From: Escherichia coli
Lineage (GTDB): Bacteria; Pseudomonadota; Gammaproteobacteria; Enterobacterales; Enterobacteriaceae
Reading direction: 5' to 3' (one strand)
Length of the DNA: 64,000 bases
Assembly (NCBI RefSeq): GCF_050320075.1
Contig: NZ_CP190018.1
Positions 50,220 to 64,000 of the stretch are shown here, piece by piece; position 1 is the stretch's first letter, and every line of letters begins with the position of its first letter. Made by a program: the position numbers and the translations under genes. A model generated the notes under the pieces. It worked only from the letters and a program-made list of their open reading frames with translations. It did no database searches and was not told the origin of the DNA.

Positions 50220-51272
50220 ATGACAGATATTGCGCAGTTGCTTGGCAAAGACGCCGACAACCTTTTACAGCACCGTTGTATGACTATTCCTTCTGACCAG
50301 CTTTATCTCCCCGGGCATGACTACGTAGACCGCGTGATGATTGACAATAATCGCCCGCCAGCGGTGTTACGTAATATGCAGACGTTGTACAACACTGGGC
50401 GTCTGGCTGGCACAGGATATCTTTCTATTCTGCCGGTTGACCAGGGCGTTGAGCACTCTGCCGGAGCTTCATTTGCTGCTAACCCGCTCTACTTTGACCC
50501 GAAAAACATTGTTGAACTGGCGATCGAAGCGGGCTGTAACTGTGTGGCGTCAACTTACGGCGTGCTGGCATCGGTATCGCGGCGTTACGCGCATCGCATT
50601 CCATTCCTCGTCAAACTTAATCACAACGAGACGCTAAGTTACCCGAATACCTACGATCAAACGCTGTATGCAAGCGTGGAGCAGGCCTTCAACATGGGCG
50701 CGGTGGCGGTTGGTGCGACTATCTATTTTGGTTCGGAAGAGTCACGTCGCCAGATTGAAGAAATTTCTGCGGCTTTTGAACGTGCGCACGAGCTGGGCAT
50801 GGTGACAGTGCTGTGGGCCTATTTGCGTAACTCCGCCTTTAAGAAAGATGGCGTTGATTACCATGTTTCCGCCGACCTGACCGGTCAGGCAAACCATCTG
50901 GCGGCGACCATAGGTGCAGATATCGTTAAACAAAAAATGGCGGAAAATAACGGCGGCTATAAAGCGATTAATTACGGTTATACCGACGATCGCGTGTACA
51001 GCAAGTTGACCAGCGAAAACCCGATTGATCTGGTGCGTTATCAGTTAGCTAACTGCTATATGGGCCGCGCAGGGTTGATAAACTCCGGCGGTGCTGCAGG
51101 CGGTGAAACTGACCTCAGCGATGCAGTGCGTACTGCGGTTATCAACAAACGCGCTGGCGGAATGGGGCTGATTCTTGGACGTAAGGCGTTCAAGAAATCG
51201 ATGGCTGACGGCGTGAAACTGATTAACGCCGTGCAGGACGTTTATCTCGATAGCAAAATTACTATCGCCTGA
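50220..51272 (+). CDS. fbaB: Class I fructose-bisphosphate aldolase
   Basis: ORF 50148..51272. Start at [10 protein letters not shown] gives 350 aa. Confidence 0.9.
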
Positions 51273-51279
51273 TACGCCT

Positions 51280-51350
51280 TATACGAACAGCACTACCCCG
51301 TATGACGGAAAAGGCGTTTACGTCGCATCCGGCATAAAAACACGCGCACT
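51280..51350. repeat. REP-like element downstream of fbaB
   Basis: gcctgatacgccttatacg ... cgtcgcatccggcat resembles REP palindromes. Confidence 0.5.
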
Positions 51351-51354
51351 TTGC

Positions 51355-51387
51355 TACGGCTTCCCTATCGGGAGGCCGTTTTTTTGT
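51355..51387 (+). terminator. Intrinsic terminator (fbaB)
   Basis: Hairpin ggcttccc-tatc-gggaggcc followed by gttttttt. Confidence 0.6.
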
Positions 51388-51389
51388 GC

Positions 51390-52095
51390 ACAGAAAACCC
51401 CCAGCTAGGCTGGGGGTTCCGGAAAGCTTTCAGCTTTGAGCCAGTTATTCAAACCCCTTTTGATTTGTTAAAACACCTTGCGGTCTGGCAACTGCAAGTG
51501 TCAAACAAGAAATCAAAAGGGGGTCCCAATGGGGGACGAAAAGAGCTTAGCGCACACCCGCTGGAACTGTAAATATCACATAGTTTTTGCGCCGAAATAC
51601 CGAAGACTGGCGTTTTACGGAGAGAAGCGTAGGGCGATAGGCAGTATTTTGAGAAAGCTGTGTGAGTGGAAAAGCGTACGGATTCTGGAAGCAGAGTGCC
51701 GCGCAGATCATATCCATATGCTTGTGGAAATCCCACCCAAAATGAGCGTATCCGGCTTTATGGGATATCTGAAAGGGAAAAGCAGTCTGATGCTTTACGA
51801 GCAGTTTGGGGATTTGAAATTCAAATACAGAAACAGGGAGTTCTGGTGCCGAGGGTACTATGTCGATACGGTGGGTAAGAACACGGCGAAGATACAGGAC
51901 TACATAAAGCACCAGCTTGAAGAGGATAAAATGGGGGAGCAGTTATCGATTCCATATCCGGGCAGCCCGTTTACGGGCCGTAAGTAACGAAGTTGAATGC
52001 AAATGTCAGATCGTATGCGCCTGTTAGGGCGCGGCTGGTAACAGAGCCTTACAGGCGCATTTGAAAAACCTCCGGCTATGCCGGAGGATATTTAT
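51390..52095 (+). mobile_element. IS200-family insertion sequence (boundaries approximate)
   Basis: Contains an IS200 TnpA gene. Left-end perfect hairpin aacccccagc-tag-gctgggggtt (51396-51418) and subterminal hairpins 52015-52060 and 52069-52090. About 0.7 kb, as expected for IS200. Confidence 0.75.
51529..51987 (+). CDS. tnpA: IS200 transposase TnpA (HUH/Y1 family)
   Basis: MGDEKSLAHTRWNCKYHIVFAPKYRR ... HIHMLVEIPPK (HuH motif), 152 aa. Near-identical to recalled Salmonella/E. coli IS200 TnpA. Confidence 0.9.
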   Translation: MGDEKSLAHTRWNCKYHIVFAPKYRRLAFYGEKRRAIGSILRKLCEWKSVRILEAECRADHIHMLVEIPPKMSVSGFMGYLKGKSSLMLYEQFGDLKFKYRNREFWCRGYYVDTVGKNTAKIQDYIKHQLEEDKMGEQLSIPYPGSPFTGRK

Positions 52096-52156
52096 TGCCT
52101 GTCATTCTGATTAATTTTCGAATTGTCGTTTTTGTGATCGTTATCTCGACATTTAA

Positions 52157-54356
<2,200 letters not shown>

Positions 54357-54365
54357 GGACGGTAT

Positions 54366-54818
54366 ATGACTAACCTGTTTGTTCGTAGCGGAATTTCTTT
54401 TGTCGATCGTAGCGAAGTTTTAACCCATATCGGTAATGAGATGCTCGCGAAAGGTGTGGTTCATGATACCTGGCCACAGGCATTAATTGCCAGAGAAGCA
54501 GAATTCCCTACCGGGATAATGCTTGAGCAGCACGCCATTGCAATACCGCATTGTGAGGCGATTCATGCTAAGTCGTCAGCCATTTATCTGTTAAGGCCAA
54601 CAAATAAAGTTCATTTTCAGCAAGCGGATGATGATAACGACGTGGCGGTATCGTTGGTTATTGCGTTAATTGTGGAAAATCCGCAGCAGCAATTGAAACT
54701 TTTACGCTGTTTATTTGGCAAGTTACAACAGCCCGAGATCGTCGAGACACTAATCACTCTTCCTGAAACCCAGTTAAAGGAATACTTCACAAAGTATGTT
54801 TTAGATTCAGACGAATAA
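54366..54818 (+). CDS. gatA: Galactitol PTS EIIA
   Basis: 150 aa PTS EIIA-type. Confidence 0.85.
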   Translation: MTNLFVRSGISFVDRSEVLTHIGNEMLAKGVVHDTWPQALIAREAEFPTGIMLEQHAIAIPHCEAIHAKSSAIYLLRPTNKVHFQQADDDNDVAVSLVIALIVENPQQQLKLLRCLFGKLQQPEIVETLITLPETQLKEYFTKYVLDSDE

Positions 54819-54848
54819 ATCCCTCTGTAACAATAAAAAGGACTATTT

Positions 54849-55133
54849 ATGAAACGCAAGATTATTGTCGCTTGCGGAGGCGCGGTTGCGACCTCCACGA
54901 TGGCGGCGGAAGAAATTAAAGAGTTGTGTCAGAGTCATAATATTCCTGTTGAATTAATCCAGTGTCGGGTTAATGAAATAGAAACCTATATGGATGGCGT
55001 GCATTTGATATGTACTACCGCCAAAGTTGACCGTAGTTTTGGCGATATTCCGTTAGTTCACGGCATGCCTTTTGTTTCTGGTGTCGGTATCGAAGCATTA
55101 CAAAATAAAATTCTGACTATCTTACAGGGGTGA
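54849..55133 (+). CDS. gatB: Galactitol PTS EIIB
   Basis: 94 aa with Cys near N-terminus ([11 protein letters not shown]). Confidence 0.85.
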
Positions 55134-55136
55134 CCT

Positions 55137-56492
55137 ATGTTTTCAGAAGTCATGCGTTATATTCTCGACCTCGGCCCTACGGTGATGCTGCCGATTGTCA
55201 TCATTATTTTTTCTAAAATATTAGGCATGAAGGCAGGCGATTGCTTTAAAGCGGGTCTGCATATCGGGATTGGCTTTGTTGGCATTGGCCTTGTGATTGG
55301 CTTAATGCTGGATTCCATTGGCCCGGCGGCGAAAGCGATGGCGGAAAATTTCGACCTGAATCTGCATGTGGTCGATGTCGGTTGGCCGGGCTCTTCACCA
55401 ATGACCTGGGCGTCGCAAATTGCGCTGGTGGCGATTCCGATTGCGATTCTGGTTAACGTGGCGATGCTACTGACCCGTATGACGCGGGTGGTAAATGTTG
55501 ATATCTGGAATATCTGGCATATGACCTTCACCGGCGCGTTGCTGCATCTGGCAACCGGTTCATGGATGATAGGGATGGCGGGTGTGGTAATTCACGCGGC
55601 GTTTGTTTATAAGCTCGGCGACTGGTTTGCCCACGATACCCGAAATTTCTTTGAGCTGGAAGGCATTGCTATTCCGCACGGTACGTCGGCGTATCTGGGG
55701 CCAATTGCGGTGCTGGTGGATGCTATCATCGAGAAAATCCCAGGCGTTAACCGTATTAAATTTAGCGCCGACGATATTCAGCGCAAATTTGGCCCATTTG
55801 GCGAACCTGTCACCGTGGGCTTTGTGATGGGGCTGATTATCGGCATCCTCGCGGGTTACGATGTCAAAGGTGTATTGCAGCTGGCGGTAAAAACGGCGGC
55901 AGTTATGCTGCTGATGCCACGGGTGATTAAACCTATCATGGATGGTTTAACGCCCATCGCTAAGCAGGCCCGTAGTCGTTTACAGGCGAAGTTCGGCGGT
56001 CAGGAGTTCCTGATTGGCCTTGATCCGGCGTTGCTGCTGGGGCATACGGCGGTGGTATCGGCAAGCCTGATTTTTATCCCGCTCACCATTTTAATTGCTG
56101 TTTGTGTTCCGGGTAATCAGGTACTGCCGTTTGGCGATCTTGCCACCATCGGCTTCTTTGTGGCGATGGCAGTTGCCGTGCATCGTGGAAATCTGTTCCG
56201 CACCTTAATCTCGGGTGTCATCATTATGAGCATCACCCTGTGGATCGCGACGCAAACTATTGGTTTGCACACCCAACTGGCGGCTAATGCTGGGGCGTTA
56301 AAAGCCGGGGGTATGGTGGCTTCAATGGATCAGGGCGGTTCTCCCATTACCTGGTTACTGATTCAGGTTTTCTCCCCGCAAAATATTCCCGGTTTCATTA
56401 TTATCGGCGCAATTTATCTGACCGGTATTTTCATGACCTGGCGTAGAGCGCGCGGCTTTATTAAACAAGAGAAAGCCGTTCTCGCAGAATAA
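55137..56492 (+). CDS. gatC: Galactitol PTS EIIC permease
   Basis: 451 aa polytopic membrane protein. Confidence 0.9.
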   Translation: MFSEVMRYILDLGPTVMLPIVIIIFSKILGMKAGDCFKAGLHIGIGFVGIGLVIGLMLDSIGPAAKAMAENFDLNLHVVDVGWPGSSPMTWASQIALVAIPIAILVNVAMLLTRMTRVVNVDIWNIWHMTFTGALLHLATGSWMIGMAGVVIHAAFVYKLGDWFAHDTRNFFELEGIAIPHGTSAYLGPIAVLVDAIIEKIPGVNRIKFSADDIQRKFGPFGEPVTVGFVMGLIIGILAGYDVKGVLQLAVKTAAVMLLMPRVIKPIMDGLTPIAKQARSRLQAKFGGQEFLIGLDPALLLGHTAVVSASLIFIPLTILIAVCVPGNQVLPFGDLATIGFFVAMAVAVHRGNLFRTLISGVIIMSITLWIATQTIGLHTQLAANAGALKAGGMVASMDQGGSPITWLLIQVFSPQNIPGFIIIGAIYLTGIFMTWRRARGFIKQEKAVLAE

Positions 56493-56539
56493 TTTTTACC
56501 TGAGGGGGAGGTAATCCCCCTTAACAATCAGGAGTTTTT

Positions 56540-57580
56540 ATGAAATCAGTGGTGAATGATACTGATGGTATCGTGCGCATTGCAGAAAGCGTCATTCCTG
56601 AAATTAAACATCAGGATGAGGTACGGGTAAAAATTGCCAGCTCGGGCTTATGTGGTTCCGATTTACCCAGGATATTTAAAAATGGTGCACATTATTATCC
56701 AATAACGTTAGGCCATGAATTTAGCGGCTATATTGATGCGGTGGGATCCGGTGTTGATGATTTACACCCTGGCGATGCGGTTGCCTGTGTGCCGTTATTA
56801 CCCTGTTTTACTTGTCCAGAGTGTTTGAAAGGGTTTTATTCCCAGTGCGCAAAATATGATTTTATTGGCTCGCGGCGTGATGGTGGATTTGCTGAATATA
56901 TTGTCGTTAAGCGAAAAAATGTCTTTGCTCTACCCACGGATATGTCTATTGAGGATGGGGCTTTTATTGAGCCGATTACCGTTGGCCTGCATGCTTTTCA
57001 TTTAGCGCAAGGTTGTGAGAATAAAAACGTTATTATTATTGGTGCCGGAACCATTGGCCTGCTGGCTATTCAGTGCGCTGTCGCGCTGGGAGCAAAGAGT
57101 GTGACGGCTATCGACATTAGCTCAGAAAAACTGGCACTGGCAAAATCTTTCGGGGCGATGCTAACATTTAACAGCCTTGAAATGAGCGCGCCGCAAATGC
57201 AGGGCGTTTTACGCGAGCTGCGCTTTAATCAGCTTATCCTCGAGACGGCTGGTGTCCCGAAAACCGTCGAACTGGCGGTAGAGATTGCCGGGCCTCATGC
57301 CCAGCTGGCGCTGGTGGGCACGTTGCATCAGGATCTGCATTTAACATCGACAACGTTTGGCAAAATATTACGTAAAGAGCTGACGGTTATCGGCAGCTGG
57401 ATGAACTACTCCAGCCCTTGGCCGGGGCAGGAGTGGGAAACGGCGAGCCGGTTGCTGACAGAACGTAAGTTAAGCCTGGAGCCATTAATCGCTCACCGTG
57501 GAAGCTTTGAAAGCTTCGCCCAGGCGGTGCGTGACATCGCTCGTAATGCTATGCCGGGCAAAGTGTTGCTCATTCCCTGA
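56540..57580 (+). CDS. gatD: Galactitol-1-phosphate 5-dehydrogenase (Zn-dependent MDR)
   Basis: 346 aa. Zn-ADH motifs (GHEFSG, GAGTIG). Confidence 0.9.
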   Translation: MKSVVNDTDGIVRIAESVIPEIKHQDEVRVKIASSGLCGSDLPRIFKNGAHYYPITLGHEFSGYIDAVGSGVDDLHPGDAVACVPLLPCFTCPECLKGFYSQCAKYDFIGSRRDGGFAEYIVVKRKNVFALPTDMSIEDGAFIEPITVGLHAFHLAQGCENKNVIIIGAGTIGLLAIQCAVALGAKSVTAIDISSEKLALAKSFGAMLTFNSLEMSAPQMQGVLRELRFNQLILETAGVPKTVELAVEIAGPHAQLALVGTLHQDLHLTSTTFGKILRKELTVIGSWMNYSSPWPGQEWETASRLLTERKLSLEPLIAHRGSFESFAQAVRDIARNAMPGKVLLIP

Positions 57581-57679
57581 AACCGCGGGCCAGCGTGATG
57601 CTGGCCCGGTATTGTGCAAAACAGATCATTCACCAATGGTCCCCCTTCGTTTACACTAGCCACAATTGAATATGGGTAA

Positions 57680-58459
57680 ATGACGATGAATTCATTCGAG
57701 CGAAGGAATAAGATCATCCAATTAGTGAATGAACAGGGAACCGTGCTTGTTCAGGATCTGGCGGGAGTATTTGCTGCCTCGGAAGCGACAATCCGTGCCG
57801 ATTTGCGCTTTCTCGAACAAAAAGGCGTGGTTACGCGCTTTCATGGCGGTGCGGCGAAAATAATGTCCGGTAATAGTGAAACCGAGACCCAGGAAGTTGG
57901 GTTTAAAGAGCGATTTCAGCTCGCCAGCGCGCCAAAAAACAGAATAGCGCAGGCGGCAGTCAAAATGATCCACGAAGGGATGACCGTTATTCTCGACAGC
58001 GGAAGTACGACAATGCTTATCGCCGAAGGATTAATGACCGCCAAAAATATCACGGTGATTACCAACAGTCTCCCGGCAGCATTTGCCCTTTCCGAAAATA
58101 AAGACATTACTCTGGTCGTCTGTGGTGGGACCGTCCGCCATAAAACACGCTCGATGCATGGTTCCATTGCCGAGCGTTCATTGCAGGATATTAATGCCGA
58201 TTTAATGTTTGTCGGTGCTGATGGTATTGATGCGGTTAATGGTATTACGACCTTTAATGAAGGTTATTCGATTAGCGGGGCGATGGTTACAGCCGCAAAT
58301 AAAGTGATTGCCGTTCTCGATTCATCGAAATTTAATCGTCGCGGTTTTAATCAGGTACTGCCAATCGAAAAAATTGACATTATTATTACCGATGATGCCG
58401 TGTCAGAGGTGGATAAACTGGCATTGCAGAAGACACGGGTGAAATTAATTACGGTGTAG
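57680..58459 (+). CDS. gatR: DeoR-family repressor of the gat operon, apparently intact
   Basis: 259 aa uninterrupted ORF with DeoR HTH and sugar-binding domain. In K-12, as I recall, this gene is split by an IS element. Confidence 0.8.
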   Translation: MTMNSFERRNKIIQLVNEQGTVLVQDLAGVFAASEATIRADLRFLEQKGVVTRFHGGAAKIMSGNSETETQEVGFKERFQLASAPKNRIAQAAVKMIHEGMTVILDSGSTTMLIAEGLMTAKNITVITNSLPAAFALSENKDITLVVCGGTVRHKTRSMHGSIAERSLQDINADLMFVGADGIDAVNGITTFNEGYSISGAMVTAANKVIAVLDSSKFNRRGFNQVLPIEKIDIIITDDAVSEVDKLALQKTRVKLITV

Positions 58460-60428: not shown

Positions 60429-61442
60429 TTACTCTACTGTGGACACTGTGTGGACACTCTCGACCTCAGTACCACCTCTTAGCGGATTAAGAGAAATGGC
60501 GTCCTGAAGGTACTCTGGCGCAAAATGAGCGTAAACCATAGTTTGCTCAATCCGCGTGTGACCTAGTATCCGTTGTAGCGTGATAATACTTCCTCCATTA
60601 ATCATGAAATGAGTGGCAAAGCTGTGCCTTAGTGCATGTGTAGCTTGCCCCATTGGCAAATCCGGTTTTATTGCTTTCATTGTTCGTCTGAAGCGAGGGT
60701 AATCAGCATCAGGGAATAAAAAACCTCGTTTGTTATCCGCGATCATTTTGGCAACAGCCTCTGAGATCGGGACGGTGCGTGGTTTGTTTGTTTTCGTTTT
60801 AACAAACGTGACGCGGTTATGGATGATATTTTCTGCTTTCAAACGAGCTGCTTCTCCCCAACGTGCTCCAGTACTCAGGCAAAGAATCGCAATCTTTTTG
60901 TTGTCGCCGTCAAGAGCAGCAAGCAGTAAGGCAATTTCTTCCTGCGTGAGATAGCCTGTGTCTGGTTTTTCCTCCTTAAGCCTTTTTGTCCCTCTGATAG
61001 GGTGCTCACCAAAGAATAACTCCGCTTCAATCAGGGCTGTAAACATGCCGCTAATACATGTTAAATCACGATTGATACTCGAAGGTTTAATACCCTGACT
61101 TCTTCGGGTGGCGCAGTACTGGCTGATAAGCGATTTCGTAATTTGAAATGCGCATGGGTCATTCGTTATTTTTGTGAAGATTTCAATTTTCCCAAGATTA
61201 GATTTCCCATGCTCTTCGTGTTTACCCTTTAAATCCCACCAGATCTGTGTCAGCTCCGACAGACGTCGCTTGTCTGTTGGTTTTGATAGCCATTCTTTAT
61301 TGTGGTGGTTGTACAACGTGTATTTCTCGAAAGCGACAGCTTCGCTTTTCTTATCAAACTTCCTACGGATGCGTTTTCCATTACGTCCAGTAGGGCGGAT
61401 GTCCACTTCATATCGACCATCATCGAGTTTTTTGATTGCCAT
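60429..61442 (-). CDS. int: P2-type tyrosine integrase
   Basis: 337 aa. Catalytic R..HxxR..Y region (HALRHSFATHF, MVYAHF). Confidence 0.9.
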   Translation of the reverse strand: MAIKKLDDGRYEVDIRPTGRNGKRIRRKFDKKSEAVAFEKYTLYNHHNKEWLSKPTDKRRLSELTQIWWDLKGKHEEHGKSNLGKIEIFTKITNDPCAFQITKSLISQYCATRRSQGIKPSSINRDLTCISGMFTALIEAELFFGEHPIRGTKRLKEEKPDTGYLTQEEIALLLAALDGDNKKIAILCLSTGARWGEAARLKAENIIHNRVTFVKTKTNKPRTVPISEAVAKMIADNKRGFLFPDADYPRFRRTMKAIKPDLPMGQATHALRHSFATHFMINGGSIITLQRILGHTRIEQTMVYAHFAPEYLQDAISLNPLRGGTEVESVHTVSTVE

Positions 61443-61557
61443 CAGAAAACCCTCCGAGTGGTGTGTTTTTTTGCGACTACTAATCGCTTTTTTCGTGGTG
61501 GCTGAAATTTAGCCACCAATAGTAGGCACTTGTGATGAATATATTCACGATGAATTG

Positions 61558-61857
61558 TTAACCAGTCTTTTGACCGGAGTGGGGCGACGTTGTTTCGTTT
61601 TGCCCAAAGTGTGCGAGAGCGGGCGCAATTTGCCCGGACTCAGGAGCGATCTGATTGGTCATGAACCATAAAGTGTATTTGGTGAATTGTGGGGTCTGCA
61701 GGATGTTCATCATGACATCTGTTGGAGGTGTTGAACGACCACTTTCATAGTAACTCAGCGTGCCATACGGAACCCCTGTTAAATCAGCAAGTTGTTGTCT
61801 GCTCAAATACTCTGATTTTCGCATTAAGACTATCTTCTCGCTTATCGTGTTTGACAT
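61558..61857 (-). CDS. C: P2-type immunity repressor C
   Basis: 99 aa. HTH (LSRQQLADLTGVPYGTLSYYESG). Divergent from cox. Confidence 0.85.
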   Translation of the reverse strand: MSNTISEKIVLMRKSEYLSRQQLADLTGVPYGTLSYYESGRSTPPTDVMMNILQTPQFTKYTLWFMTNQIAPESGQIAPALAHFGQNETTSPHSGQKTG

Positions 61858-61971
61858 GGTGTTTAGATCTCAATAGTATTTAGTTTAGATGTAGATTGTT
61901 TAGTGCTTGGATGTGGGCACTAAAAGGCATTATAAGACATTAAACGCAATTCATGAGGGCTAGAGGACGAC
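61858..61971. promoter_or_regulatory. Pe/Pc lysis-lysogeny switch region with direct-repeat operators
   Basis: Intergenic region between divergent C and cox with direct repeats tttagat (61862, 61884) and face-to-face promoters expected for P2. Confidence 0.55.
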
Positions 61972-62247
61972 ATGAGCAAGCAAGTAACACTCATGACTGA
62001 TGCGATTCCTTATCAGGAGTTCGCAAAACTAATAGGAAAATCGACAGGAGCGGTTCGTCGGATGATCGATAAAGGAAAGCTGCCTGTAATTAATATGACC
62101 GATCCACAATCAGCTTCAGGTCGTGCAGGTGAATATTGGGTATACCTTCCGGCATGGAATAACGGACTAAAACTGGCTTATGAAAGCCGCCCTAAAGAGA
62201 TTCGTGACGGCTGGTTGATGTGGTTAGGTCTCGGTGAACCACGTTAA
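61972..62247 (+). CDS. cox: P2-type Cox excisionase/repressor
   Basis: 91 aa, first gene of the early operon. Confidence 0.85.
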   Translation: MSKQVTLMTDAIPYQEFAKLIGKSTGAVRRMIDKGKLPVINMTDPQSASGRAGEYWVYLPAWNNGLKLAYESRPKEIRDGWLMWLGLGEPR

Positions 62248-62428
62248 GGAGAACCGTATGAATGAGCCTCGTTGTATTGCTCAGTTACTGCGTAACGAAA
62301 GCCCCAGGGCGATTGACTTCACCATCACCCACGGTAAGGGGCGTAAGGGAATCATTATCCGCACCAAAAAACAGAGTCCGTTAAAAAAGGCTCTGACCTT
62401 TCTGAAAAGCCGGAGGGTATGGAAATGA
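62234..62428 (+). CDS. P2 early small protein (orf78-like)
   Basis: 64-aa ORF overlapping the cox end. Position in early operon. Confidence 0.5.
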   Translation: MNHVKENRMNEPRCIAQLLRNESPRAIDFTITHGKGRKGIIIRTKKQSPLKKALTFLKSRRVWK

Positions 62429-62925
62429 CAGTGATGACGCTCAATCTCGTTGAAAAACAGCCAGCAGCTATGCGCCGGATAATTGGCAAGCATCTTGCCG
62501 TCCCTCGCTGGCAGGATACATGTGATTATTATAATCAGATGATGGAGCGCGAACGGCTAACGGTTTGCTTTCATGCACAGTTAAAACAGCGTCACGCAAC
62601 GATGCGTTTTGAAGAAATGAACGACGTCGAACGTGAACGGCTGGTTTGTGCAATTGATGAATTGCGTGGGGCATTCTCAAAACGCCGTCAGGTCGGTGCA
62701 AGTGAGTATGCATATATTAGTTTTTTAACAGTCAGCCAGCGACGTACTTTATTTATGCACGCACGACTGACAGAAAAAGAATTCAACCAGCCGTACTGGC
62801 GAATTAATGAAGAATCATGTTACTGGCGTGATGCTTTATTCCGTGCATTACGTGAATTATTCAGTCTGTTTGAGTATGCACCGACAATTCTGACGTCGGT
62901 AAAACCAGAGCAATATCTGCATTAA
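62419..62925 (+). CDS. B: P2-type replication protein B
   Basis: 168 aa. Position and size match P2 B. Confidence 0.75.
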   Translation: MEMTVMTLNLVEKQPAAMRRIIGKHLAVPRWQDTCDYYNQMMERERLTVCFHAQLKQRHATMRFEEMNDVERERLVCAIDELRGAFSKRRQVGASEYAYISFLTVSQRRTLFMHARLTEKEFNQPYWRINEESCYWRDALFRALRELFSLFEYAPTILTSVKPEQYLH

Positions 62926-62988
62926 ATAATTAACCAGATTTTTTAACGCACTTAATCGTGCGGGGCTTCTTTTTGCCTGGAGAAAGTC

Positions 62989-63213
62989 ATGCATACAGTT
63001 TCTGAAAATCAGTGCGGTAAATACGCATTACTGCTGCAACAGGCCAGAACCGAAGCACAGGCCGACGCTGCGACGCGCTTTTCTTCTCATCTTGACGCCA
63101 TGATTCGCCATATCACAAAGGCGGAGTTATCCCGCGTGGAGATAGTCGAGCTGCTCAGTCAGGAGTCGGAAAAATTTCACAATATCGGATTGTCTCGCGG
63201 GGAGGTGCTTTGA
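62989..63213 (+). CDS. P2 early small protein (orf80-like)
   Basis: 74-aa ORF in the early operon. Confidence 0.5.
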
Positions 63214-63515
63214 TGTCCTGTTCTCATTCAGTTGTATTACTGAATAACGCCTTAAAAATCGCCGTTATGGAAAATGGTGATTTATCTCTTATTCAACTTT
63301 GTCTTGATAAAGAAAAACGCGACATAACTGAATCTGTTATCGCGATTTATCAGAATGAATTAAACCTCCTGTCTGATGTGGTCAATTTACTTGTTAAACG
63401 CGCGGTATTCCACAAGCAAATTTCCTCCGTGGATGAACTGACAAAATTAACGACAGAAATCGTCAGCTATTGCGCTGATGAATTTAAGAAACTGAACGAC
63501 AAAAGGAACTGGTAA
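63210..63515 (+). CDS. P2 early small protein (orf81-like)
   Basis: 101 aa. ATGA overlap with the previous ORF. Confidence 0.5.
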
Positions 63516-63739
63516 TGCCGGACAACGTAGATTTCATTCAGGAACAACAGGCTGAATTACTGGAGCGCCAGATTAACGCGGCAAGGGTAAAACATTGCGG
63601 TGTTTCTGCGCTGGTTTGCGAAGAGTGTGACGTGCCAATACCTGCTGCCCGTCGTGCGGCTTATCCGTCAGCCACGCGTTGTGTTTCCTGTCAGTCAGTC
63701 TTTGAAGCAAAAAACAAACATTACCGGAGAACGGCATGA
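63515..63739 (+). CDS. DksA/TraR-type C4 zinc-finger protein (orf82-like)
   Basis: 74 aa with CxxC...CxxC (CEECDV...CVSCQ). Confidence 0.65.
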   Translation: MPDNVDFIQEQQAELLERQINAARVKHCGVSALVCEECDVPIPAARRAAYPSATRCVSCQSVFEAKNKHYRRTA

Positions 63740-64000
63740 GTATTCGTATTGAAATTGGCGAACGTTATGTCGTTACCAGTGACAGCTTTCAGTTTATTCT
63801 CCACGAGAAAAAGAGAGCGGAAAGCGGTAAAAACGCCGGTCAGGAATGGCTGTCGGTGGTTGGTTATTACCCGAAATTAAGCCAGCTCGTTTCCGGCCTG
63901 ATGCATCACGATATTCTGACCGGAAGCGCAAAGTCTTTTGCTGATTTAAACGCGCAGGTTGAGCAACTCAGCAAGCGTTGTTCAGAGGCTTTTGGCTCAT
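63736..64000 (+). CDS. P2 early protein (orf83-like), 3'-truncated by window edge
   Basis: ATG at 63736 with ATGA overlap. Open to the window end. Confidence 0.5.
   Translation, partial: MSIRIEIGERYVVTSDSFQFILHEKKRAESGKNAGQEWLSVVGYYPKLSQLVSGLMHHDILTGSAKSFADLNAQVEQLSKRCSEAFGS

Follow-up and report, generated by a model that had tools for sequence, protein, structure and literature searches.

The gatR gene in the gat locus

The window, a stretch of 64,000 nucleotides of Escherichia coli DNA, contains a complete gat gene cluster with gatR as its last member (Table 1). Behind yegU and yegT, the genes follow in the order fbaB (+), IS200, gatY-gatZ-gatA-gatB-gatC-gatD-gatR (all +), yegS (-) and yegR (+), after which a P2-like prophage begins. 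K-12 has this arrangement on the opposite strand, except for the IS200 element and the prophage, and the position of gatR between gatD and the convergent yegS is kept in K-12, HS, M217 and CFT073. The window and the chromosome of Ec-U3, isolated from urine in Burkina Faso, share 100% identity over 10.3 kb that include the gat region.

Table 1. Positions of genes, domains and regulatory features of the gat region in the window.
Feature	Position	Strand	Description and basis
yegU, yegT	5' of fbaB	-	gene order in the window
fbaB intrinsic terminator	51356..51385	+	hairpin and T-run; 10-pair stem with 7 G-C pairs
IS200 element	51386..52095	+ (gat orientation)	710 bp, ends uncertain by ~2 bp; between fbaB terminator and gatY promoter
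STnc490 Hfq-binding sRNA	51396..51519	+	5' leader of IS200 tnpA; Rfam RF01405, 143.9 bits against a gathering score of 56, E 4e-30
IS200 tnpA	51529-51987	+	PGAP in Ec-U3, 152 aa; NCBIfam NF033573 transpos_IS200, 143.9 bits against a cutoff of 55
Predicted gatY promoter region	52133..52182	+	promoter scan and sequence reading
CRP-like site	52133-52148	+	TGTGA-N6-TCTCG, read from the sequence
-35-like hexamer	52146-52151	+	TCGACA, promoter scan
-10-like hexamer	52170-52175	+	CATTAT, promoter scan
gatYZABCD	52211..57580	+	six structural genes, all full length
gatY	52211-53065	+	ORF list
gatZ	53094-54356	+	ORF list
gatA	54366-54818	+	ORF list
gatB	54849-55133	+	ORF list
gatC	55137-56492	+	ORF list; PTS IIC, 451 aa, full length
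gatD	56540-57580	+	ORF list
gatD-gatR intergenic region	57581..57685	+	sequence reading and alignment
gatR, maximal ORF	57680..58459	+	259 aa, ATG start, uninterrupted (ORF list)
gatR, annotated CDS	57686..58459	+	257 aa and stop, WP_001295426.1; PGAP and K-12 annotation
DeoR-type HTH DNA-binding domain (N-terminal)	57701..57859	+	residues 8-60 of the 259-aa ORF; PF08220 HTH_DeoR, E 1.3e-16, 60.5 bits against a cutoff of 21
DeoRC sensor/oligomerisation domain (C-terminal)	57932..58393	+	residues 85-238 of the 259-aa ORF; PF00455 DeoRC, E 2.5e-51, 174 bits against a cutoff of 31.8
Intact GAC site	57982..57984	+	matches the 3-bp target duplicated by IS3E in MG1655; MG1655 annotation and flank reconstruction; insertion absent here

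The structural genes have the lengths annotated in HS, CFT073 and Ec-U3. In MG1655, by contrast, gatC is a pseudogene, so that this strain differs from the window at two points of the gat system, gatR and gatC.

The maximal gatR ORF opens 99 bp past the gatD stop codon. The initial annotation had described an uninterrupted 259-aa DeoR-family ORF following gatD, and both the ORF list and the Pfam domains agree with it; the annotated start is the second in-frame ATG, two codons 3' of the first, which gives the 257-aa form. A weak Shine-Dalgarno-like GGG at 57674-57676 lies 9 nt from the ATG at 57686 and only 3 nt from that at 57680, and thus appears better spaced for the annotated start. Both the 259-aa and the 257-aa forms are found in public databases, and the two additional N-terminal residues have no bearing on function.

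The product has an N-terminal HTH_DeoR domain and a C-terminal DeoRC domain, as is characteristic of the DeoR/GlpR family. Both matches exceed the gathering scores of their profiles, that to DeoRC spanning profile positions 5-159 of 160, and their presence indicates a real gene rather than a chance ORF. The sole relative found by sequence in the PDB is the DeoR C-terminal domain (7l6l). AgaR, SrlR, GlpR and DeoR share this architecture at a length of about 250-260 aa and are likewise repressors released by a metabolite of their pathway, but each has its own genomic context and target operon, and the window protein scores below the equivalog cutoff for each of these models. Its location directly 3' of gatD in the gatYZABCD cluster, its convergence with yegS and its identity to reference sequences mark it as the orthologue of GatR, and some public sources name the exact sequence 'DeoR family galactitol utilization operon repressor'.

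GatR in K-12 and other strains

For comparison with K-12, the two gatR fragments of MG1655 were rejoined after removal of IS3E and aligned with window positions 57686-58459. The genes differ at 16 nucleotides over 774 positions, and all 16 differences are synonymous, with no non-synonymous change, indicating purifying selection; the proteins are identical at 257/257 residues. Inactivating substitutions in the HTH or effector domain, which had been named beforehand as the finding that would speak against a functional repressor, were sought in this alignment and are absent (0 amino-acid differences). The protein is also identical in E. coli HS (WP_001295426.1), M217 and Ec-U3, and that of CFT073 departs from it by a single change, I196V.

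In MG1655, gatR (b4498) occupies the same locus, between gatD and yegS, and is a pseudogene whose two fragments measure 299 and 475 bp. A 1258-bp IS3E element (insE5/insF5), flanked by a 3-bp duplication, follows codon 99/100 and splits the HTH from the sensor domain, with constitutive gat expression as the outcome. The disruption of the K-12 gene by an IS element that the initial annotation had mentioned is the one recorded in the MG1655 annotation. The insertion point maps to window position 57984/57985, at codon 100 of the 257-aa form, 3' of the HTH, where the sensor domain begins, and the window sequence is unbroken there. The disruption is a trait of the MG1655 lineage and not of all K-12, since K-12 NCM3722 has an intact gatR (PMC3045373).

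Among 5426 complete E. coli genomes, gatR is present in 5109, and in 4756 at least 80% of it lies in a single piece. Full-length matches sampled across the ranking were without exception annotated as ordinary DeoR/GlpR regulators, and the exact 257-aa and 259-aa sequences each occur on at least 1000 contigs. Split copies belong largely to laboratory strains of the K-12 type, together with occasional rearrangements such as that of BL21(RP). E. coli therefore normally carries gatR intact, and the IS3E-disrupted MG1655 allele is the exception. In BL21(RP) (NZ_CP084683.1), gatR is truncated at its 5' end and adjoins a truncated tynA; considered as a second example of a disrupted gatR, this proved to be a strain-specific rearrangement rather than an insertion of the IS3E type, and it is uninformative here.

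Regulatory DNA and the IS200 element upstream of gatY

A promoter scan of 51250-52260 returned a single sigma-70-like site, TCGACA-18-CATTAT at 52146-52175. Together with the CRP-like site that overlaps its -35-like hexamer, it suggests a gatY transcript starting near 52182, with the CRP-like site centred at about -41.5 in a class II arrangement. From 52122 to the gatY ATG, the region differs from those of K-12 and HS by one nucleotide. This is position 52150, in the -35-like hexamer, which is C in the window, M217 and CFT073 (TCGACA) and T in K-12 and HS (TCGATA); the C allele is one step nearer the TTGACA consensus.

The gatD-gatR spacer (115 bp compared) is 100% identical to those of K-12, HS and M217 and differs from that of CFT073 by one nucleotide. 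By our own reading, a hairpin at 57587-57607, not followed by a T-run, and a weak promoter-like pair, TTCACC-17-TACACT at 57629-57657, lie in this spacer; the pair matches at 8/12 positions and falls below the threshold of the scan, which itself listed no site in 57581..57685.

The literature was searched for E. coli GatR operators that had been mapped, with no usable result, and a search for internal repeats and for motifs common to the regions upstream of gatY and gatR yielded nothing significant. One candidate was a 12-mer match with 2 mismatches, of which 2 were found against 0.6 expected in shuffled sequences. A conserved 8-bp inverted pair, TGTCGTTT / AAACGACA, at 52124-52131 and 52193-52200, has its arms 69 bp apart and brackets the CRP-like site and the core promoter. 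These arms are possible GatR operator halves, although statistically unconvincing when taken alone, and a 10-mer partner, TTTTCGAATT, varies between strains. As GatR operators, the 12-mer, the inverted pair and the 10-mer are all too weak to call.

The initial annotation had also placed an IS200 upstream of the gat operon, and both alignment and the transposase profile confirm a real element at 51386-52095. Aligned with M217 and K-12, both of which lack it, it appears as a 710-bp insert with no evident duplication of its flanks. A Y1 (HUH) TnpA of about 150 aa, a length of about 700-710 bp, an STnc490 leader, terminal hairpins and the lack of a target duplication place it in the IS200/IS605 family. 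The element was inserted directly behind the T-run of the fbaB terminator, and its right end carries terminator-like hairpins on both strands (52069-52087). It ends about 37 bp from the CRP-like site and about 87 bp from the predicted gatY start, leaving both the promoter and the CRP-like site intact. STnc490 and the gatY promoter are on one strand, with STnc490 about 660 bp upstream. The fbaB-gatY spacer measures 307 bp in K-12, 230 bp in M217 and, with the element, 938 bp in the window; an additional REP-like sequence of 78 bp in the 3' region of fbaB is present in K-12 and missing from both the window and M217.

The full IS200 junction occurs in 19 of the 5426 complete genomes, among them the reference uropathogen CFT073, and in all of these the gat genes and gatR are intact and the 10-kb gat regions share 96.4-100% identity with the window. 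CFT073 has the same order, fbaB - IS200C - gatYZABCD - gatR, and both the junctions and the orientation of its element agree exactly with those in the window, as does its promoter-proximal haplotype; the strain differs in that its IS200 copy is about 4-5% diverged, its 10-kb region being 96.4% identical to that of the window. The junctions common to the two strains go back either to an old insertion that both share or to repeated insertion at the site behind the fbaB T-run.

No part of the region varies more across E. coli than the 26 bp between the element and position 52122 (52096-52121); in many genomes the match begins only at 52113, and overall matches are 88-97%. The window haplotype here is that of CFT073, and similar sequence without the IS appears to occur in ST131-type genomes such as JJ2434, whose matches of 95-98% start at the IS boundary and were taken as matches rather than aligned base by base. 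We therefore rejected the insertion as the cause of the differences beside its right end; since the haplotype is present in CFT073 and in apparently IS-free ST131-type genomes, these are ordinary polymorphism and not insertion damage.

Predicted repression and inducibility of the gat operon

The activity of this repressor has been studied in other strains. When the native HS gatR sequence was put into MG1655 derivatives, regulated gat expression was restored, and the resulting gat-regulated K-12 derivatives were galactitol-positive, with galactitol phenotyping at 30 °C; constitutive gat mutants then arose from the restored strain in mice, and targeted PCR pointed to possible new IS insertions in gatR (Sousa et al., 2017, PMC5850726). 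As the window protein is identical to HS GatR, the repressor activity of the encoded protein has been shown directly in that work (PMC5850726). HS further resembles the window in having an identical gatD-gatR spacer and a gatY promoter region that is the same save for one nucleotide; it differs in lacking IS200 between fbaB and gatY and in having another haplotype in the ~26 bp upstream of the CRP-like site. Two further studies bear on GatR function. Expression of gat is higher in MG1655 than in K-12 NCM3722, which Lyons et al. (2011, PMC3045373) attribute to disruption of gatR 'only in this strain'; other publications say likewise of K-12. In a CRISPRi screen of CFT073, silencing of gatR was beneficial in the mouse gut, which the authors read as GatR keeping gat repressed (preprint, bioRxiv 10.64898/2026.01.05.697630). 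The latter result indicates that repression works with IS200 in place.

We suggest that window positions 57686-58459 are very probably a wild-type, functional allele of gatR, which codes for the DeoR/GlpR-family repressor of the operon for galactitol PTS uptake and catabolism (gatYZABCD), and that the gat operon of this strain would be repressed by GatR and inducible. This reading is the best supported because GatR is identical to the HS allele, the cis regions are conserved and gatYZABCD are full length. The expectation in the initial annotation of functional repression, with gat inducible rather than constitutive, is in keeping with the identity to the HS allele and the conserved cis DNA, from which the behaviour of the strain is predicted.

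In the mechanism that we envisage, GatR would be made from a weak promoter of its own and/or by read-through from gatD, and its N-terminal HTH would bind operators whose positions are presumed to lie in the gatY promoter region. Bound GatR would block a CRP-dependent gatY promoter, with CRP supplying the catabolite control of gat. Galactitol taken up and phosphorylated by the GatABC PTS would give rise to an effector that lifts repression by binding to the DeoRC domain; other repressors of the DeoR family suggest by analogy that this effector is most likely a phosphorylated intermediate of the pathway, e.g., galactitol-1-phosphate.

An unlikely alternative is that gatR is intact and the operon is nevertheless not usefully inducible, the strain being Gat-negative or only conditionally positive, for example temperature-sensitive or poorly de-repressed. 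Gat phenotypes of many wild isolates are temperature-sensitive, a property that fits galactitol phenotyping at 30 °C. Such a temperature was used by Sousa et al. (PMC5850726), and the CRISPRi preprint remarks that clinical strains 'fail to de-repress' the operon, suggesting that in the mouse gut CFT073 and LF82 hold gat repressed even under conditions in which its de-repression would benefit them (bioRxiv 10.64898/2026.01.05.697630). Against this alternative, the gat structural genes are all full length, and the same repressor allele gave regulated, galactitol-positive derivatives of K-12 (PMC5850726). In view of the hint of poor de-repression in vivo in clinical strains, the inducibility of gat may still be weaker in practice than in principle.

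Somewhat less probable again is that GatR is functional and the IS200 at about -87 alters the control of gat. The insertion could have displaced or separated an upstream operator or UP-like DNA, resulting in partial de-repression or lower maximal expression, or the terminators at its end could insulate the promoter. The short distances from the element to the CRP-like site and the predicted start speak for such an effect, as do the terminator-like hairpins on both strands at its right end. Some DeoR-family repressors, DeoR itself included, use distant auxiliary operators, which also counts in its favour. On the other side, the neighbouring upstream DNA that the element replaced is only the fbaB terminator, the 26 bp beside it are the most polymorphic of the region, which argues against a conserved operator there, and the insertion is found with intact gat genes and gatR in at least 19 complete genomes, CFT073 included. 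The authors of the preprint, moreover, read their CFT073 result as GatR still repressing gat. Most likely, then, the IS200 is neutral for gat regulation, and we consider it improbable that in the window, CFT073 and about 17 other genomes it alters basal or induced gat expression or control by GatR and CRP, for which loss of native upstream DNA, insulation of the promoter or the Hfq-binding STnc490 leader RNA could be the means. If it did, this would go some way towards accounting for the behaviour of clinical strains, CFT073 among them, that 'fail to de-repress' gat in the gut. Formally, a GatR operator may lie within the polymorphic 52096-52121, or native upstream DNA may be needed; the element lies 20-30 bp from that stretch.

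Finally, the idea that the ORF encodes another DeoR-family regulator, an AgaR or SrlR paralogue, arises from its best NCBIfam matches, AgaR (232.9 bits) and SrlR (226.3 bits), among which there is no GatR-specific model, but both scores fall below the curated cutoffs (260 and 350, respectively), the ORF is syntenic with K-12 gatR (b4498) with a 100% identical protein, and databases name that exact protein the galactitol utilization operon repressor, so that we regard such a misassignment as excluded.

The gatR of the window is the widespread wild-type form of an already known repressor at its known place and holds nothing new in itself; its contrast with K-12 belongs to textbook knowledge of K-12, and the architecture of the locus, IS200 included, is already present in CFT073. 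The intact gene says something about K-12 and nothing unusual about the window strain: the constitutive gat expression of MG1655 is a peculiarity of a laboratory lineage. This bears on the extrapolation to natural isolates of gut-colonisation results obtained with K-12, in which gat is a hotspot of selection.

The P2-like prophage begins directly 3' of yegR and occupies window positions 60429-64000, with its integrase at 60429..61442 (-). In Ec-U3 its annotated genes include the site-specific integrase, a cox-family regulator, repB and DUF2732/DUF5405 proteins. In K-12 this chromosomal site is occupied by PR-X (ogrK, yegZ), a cryptic remnant of P2, and so it looks like a P2 attachment site in recurrent use.
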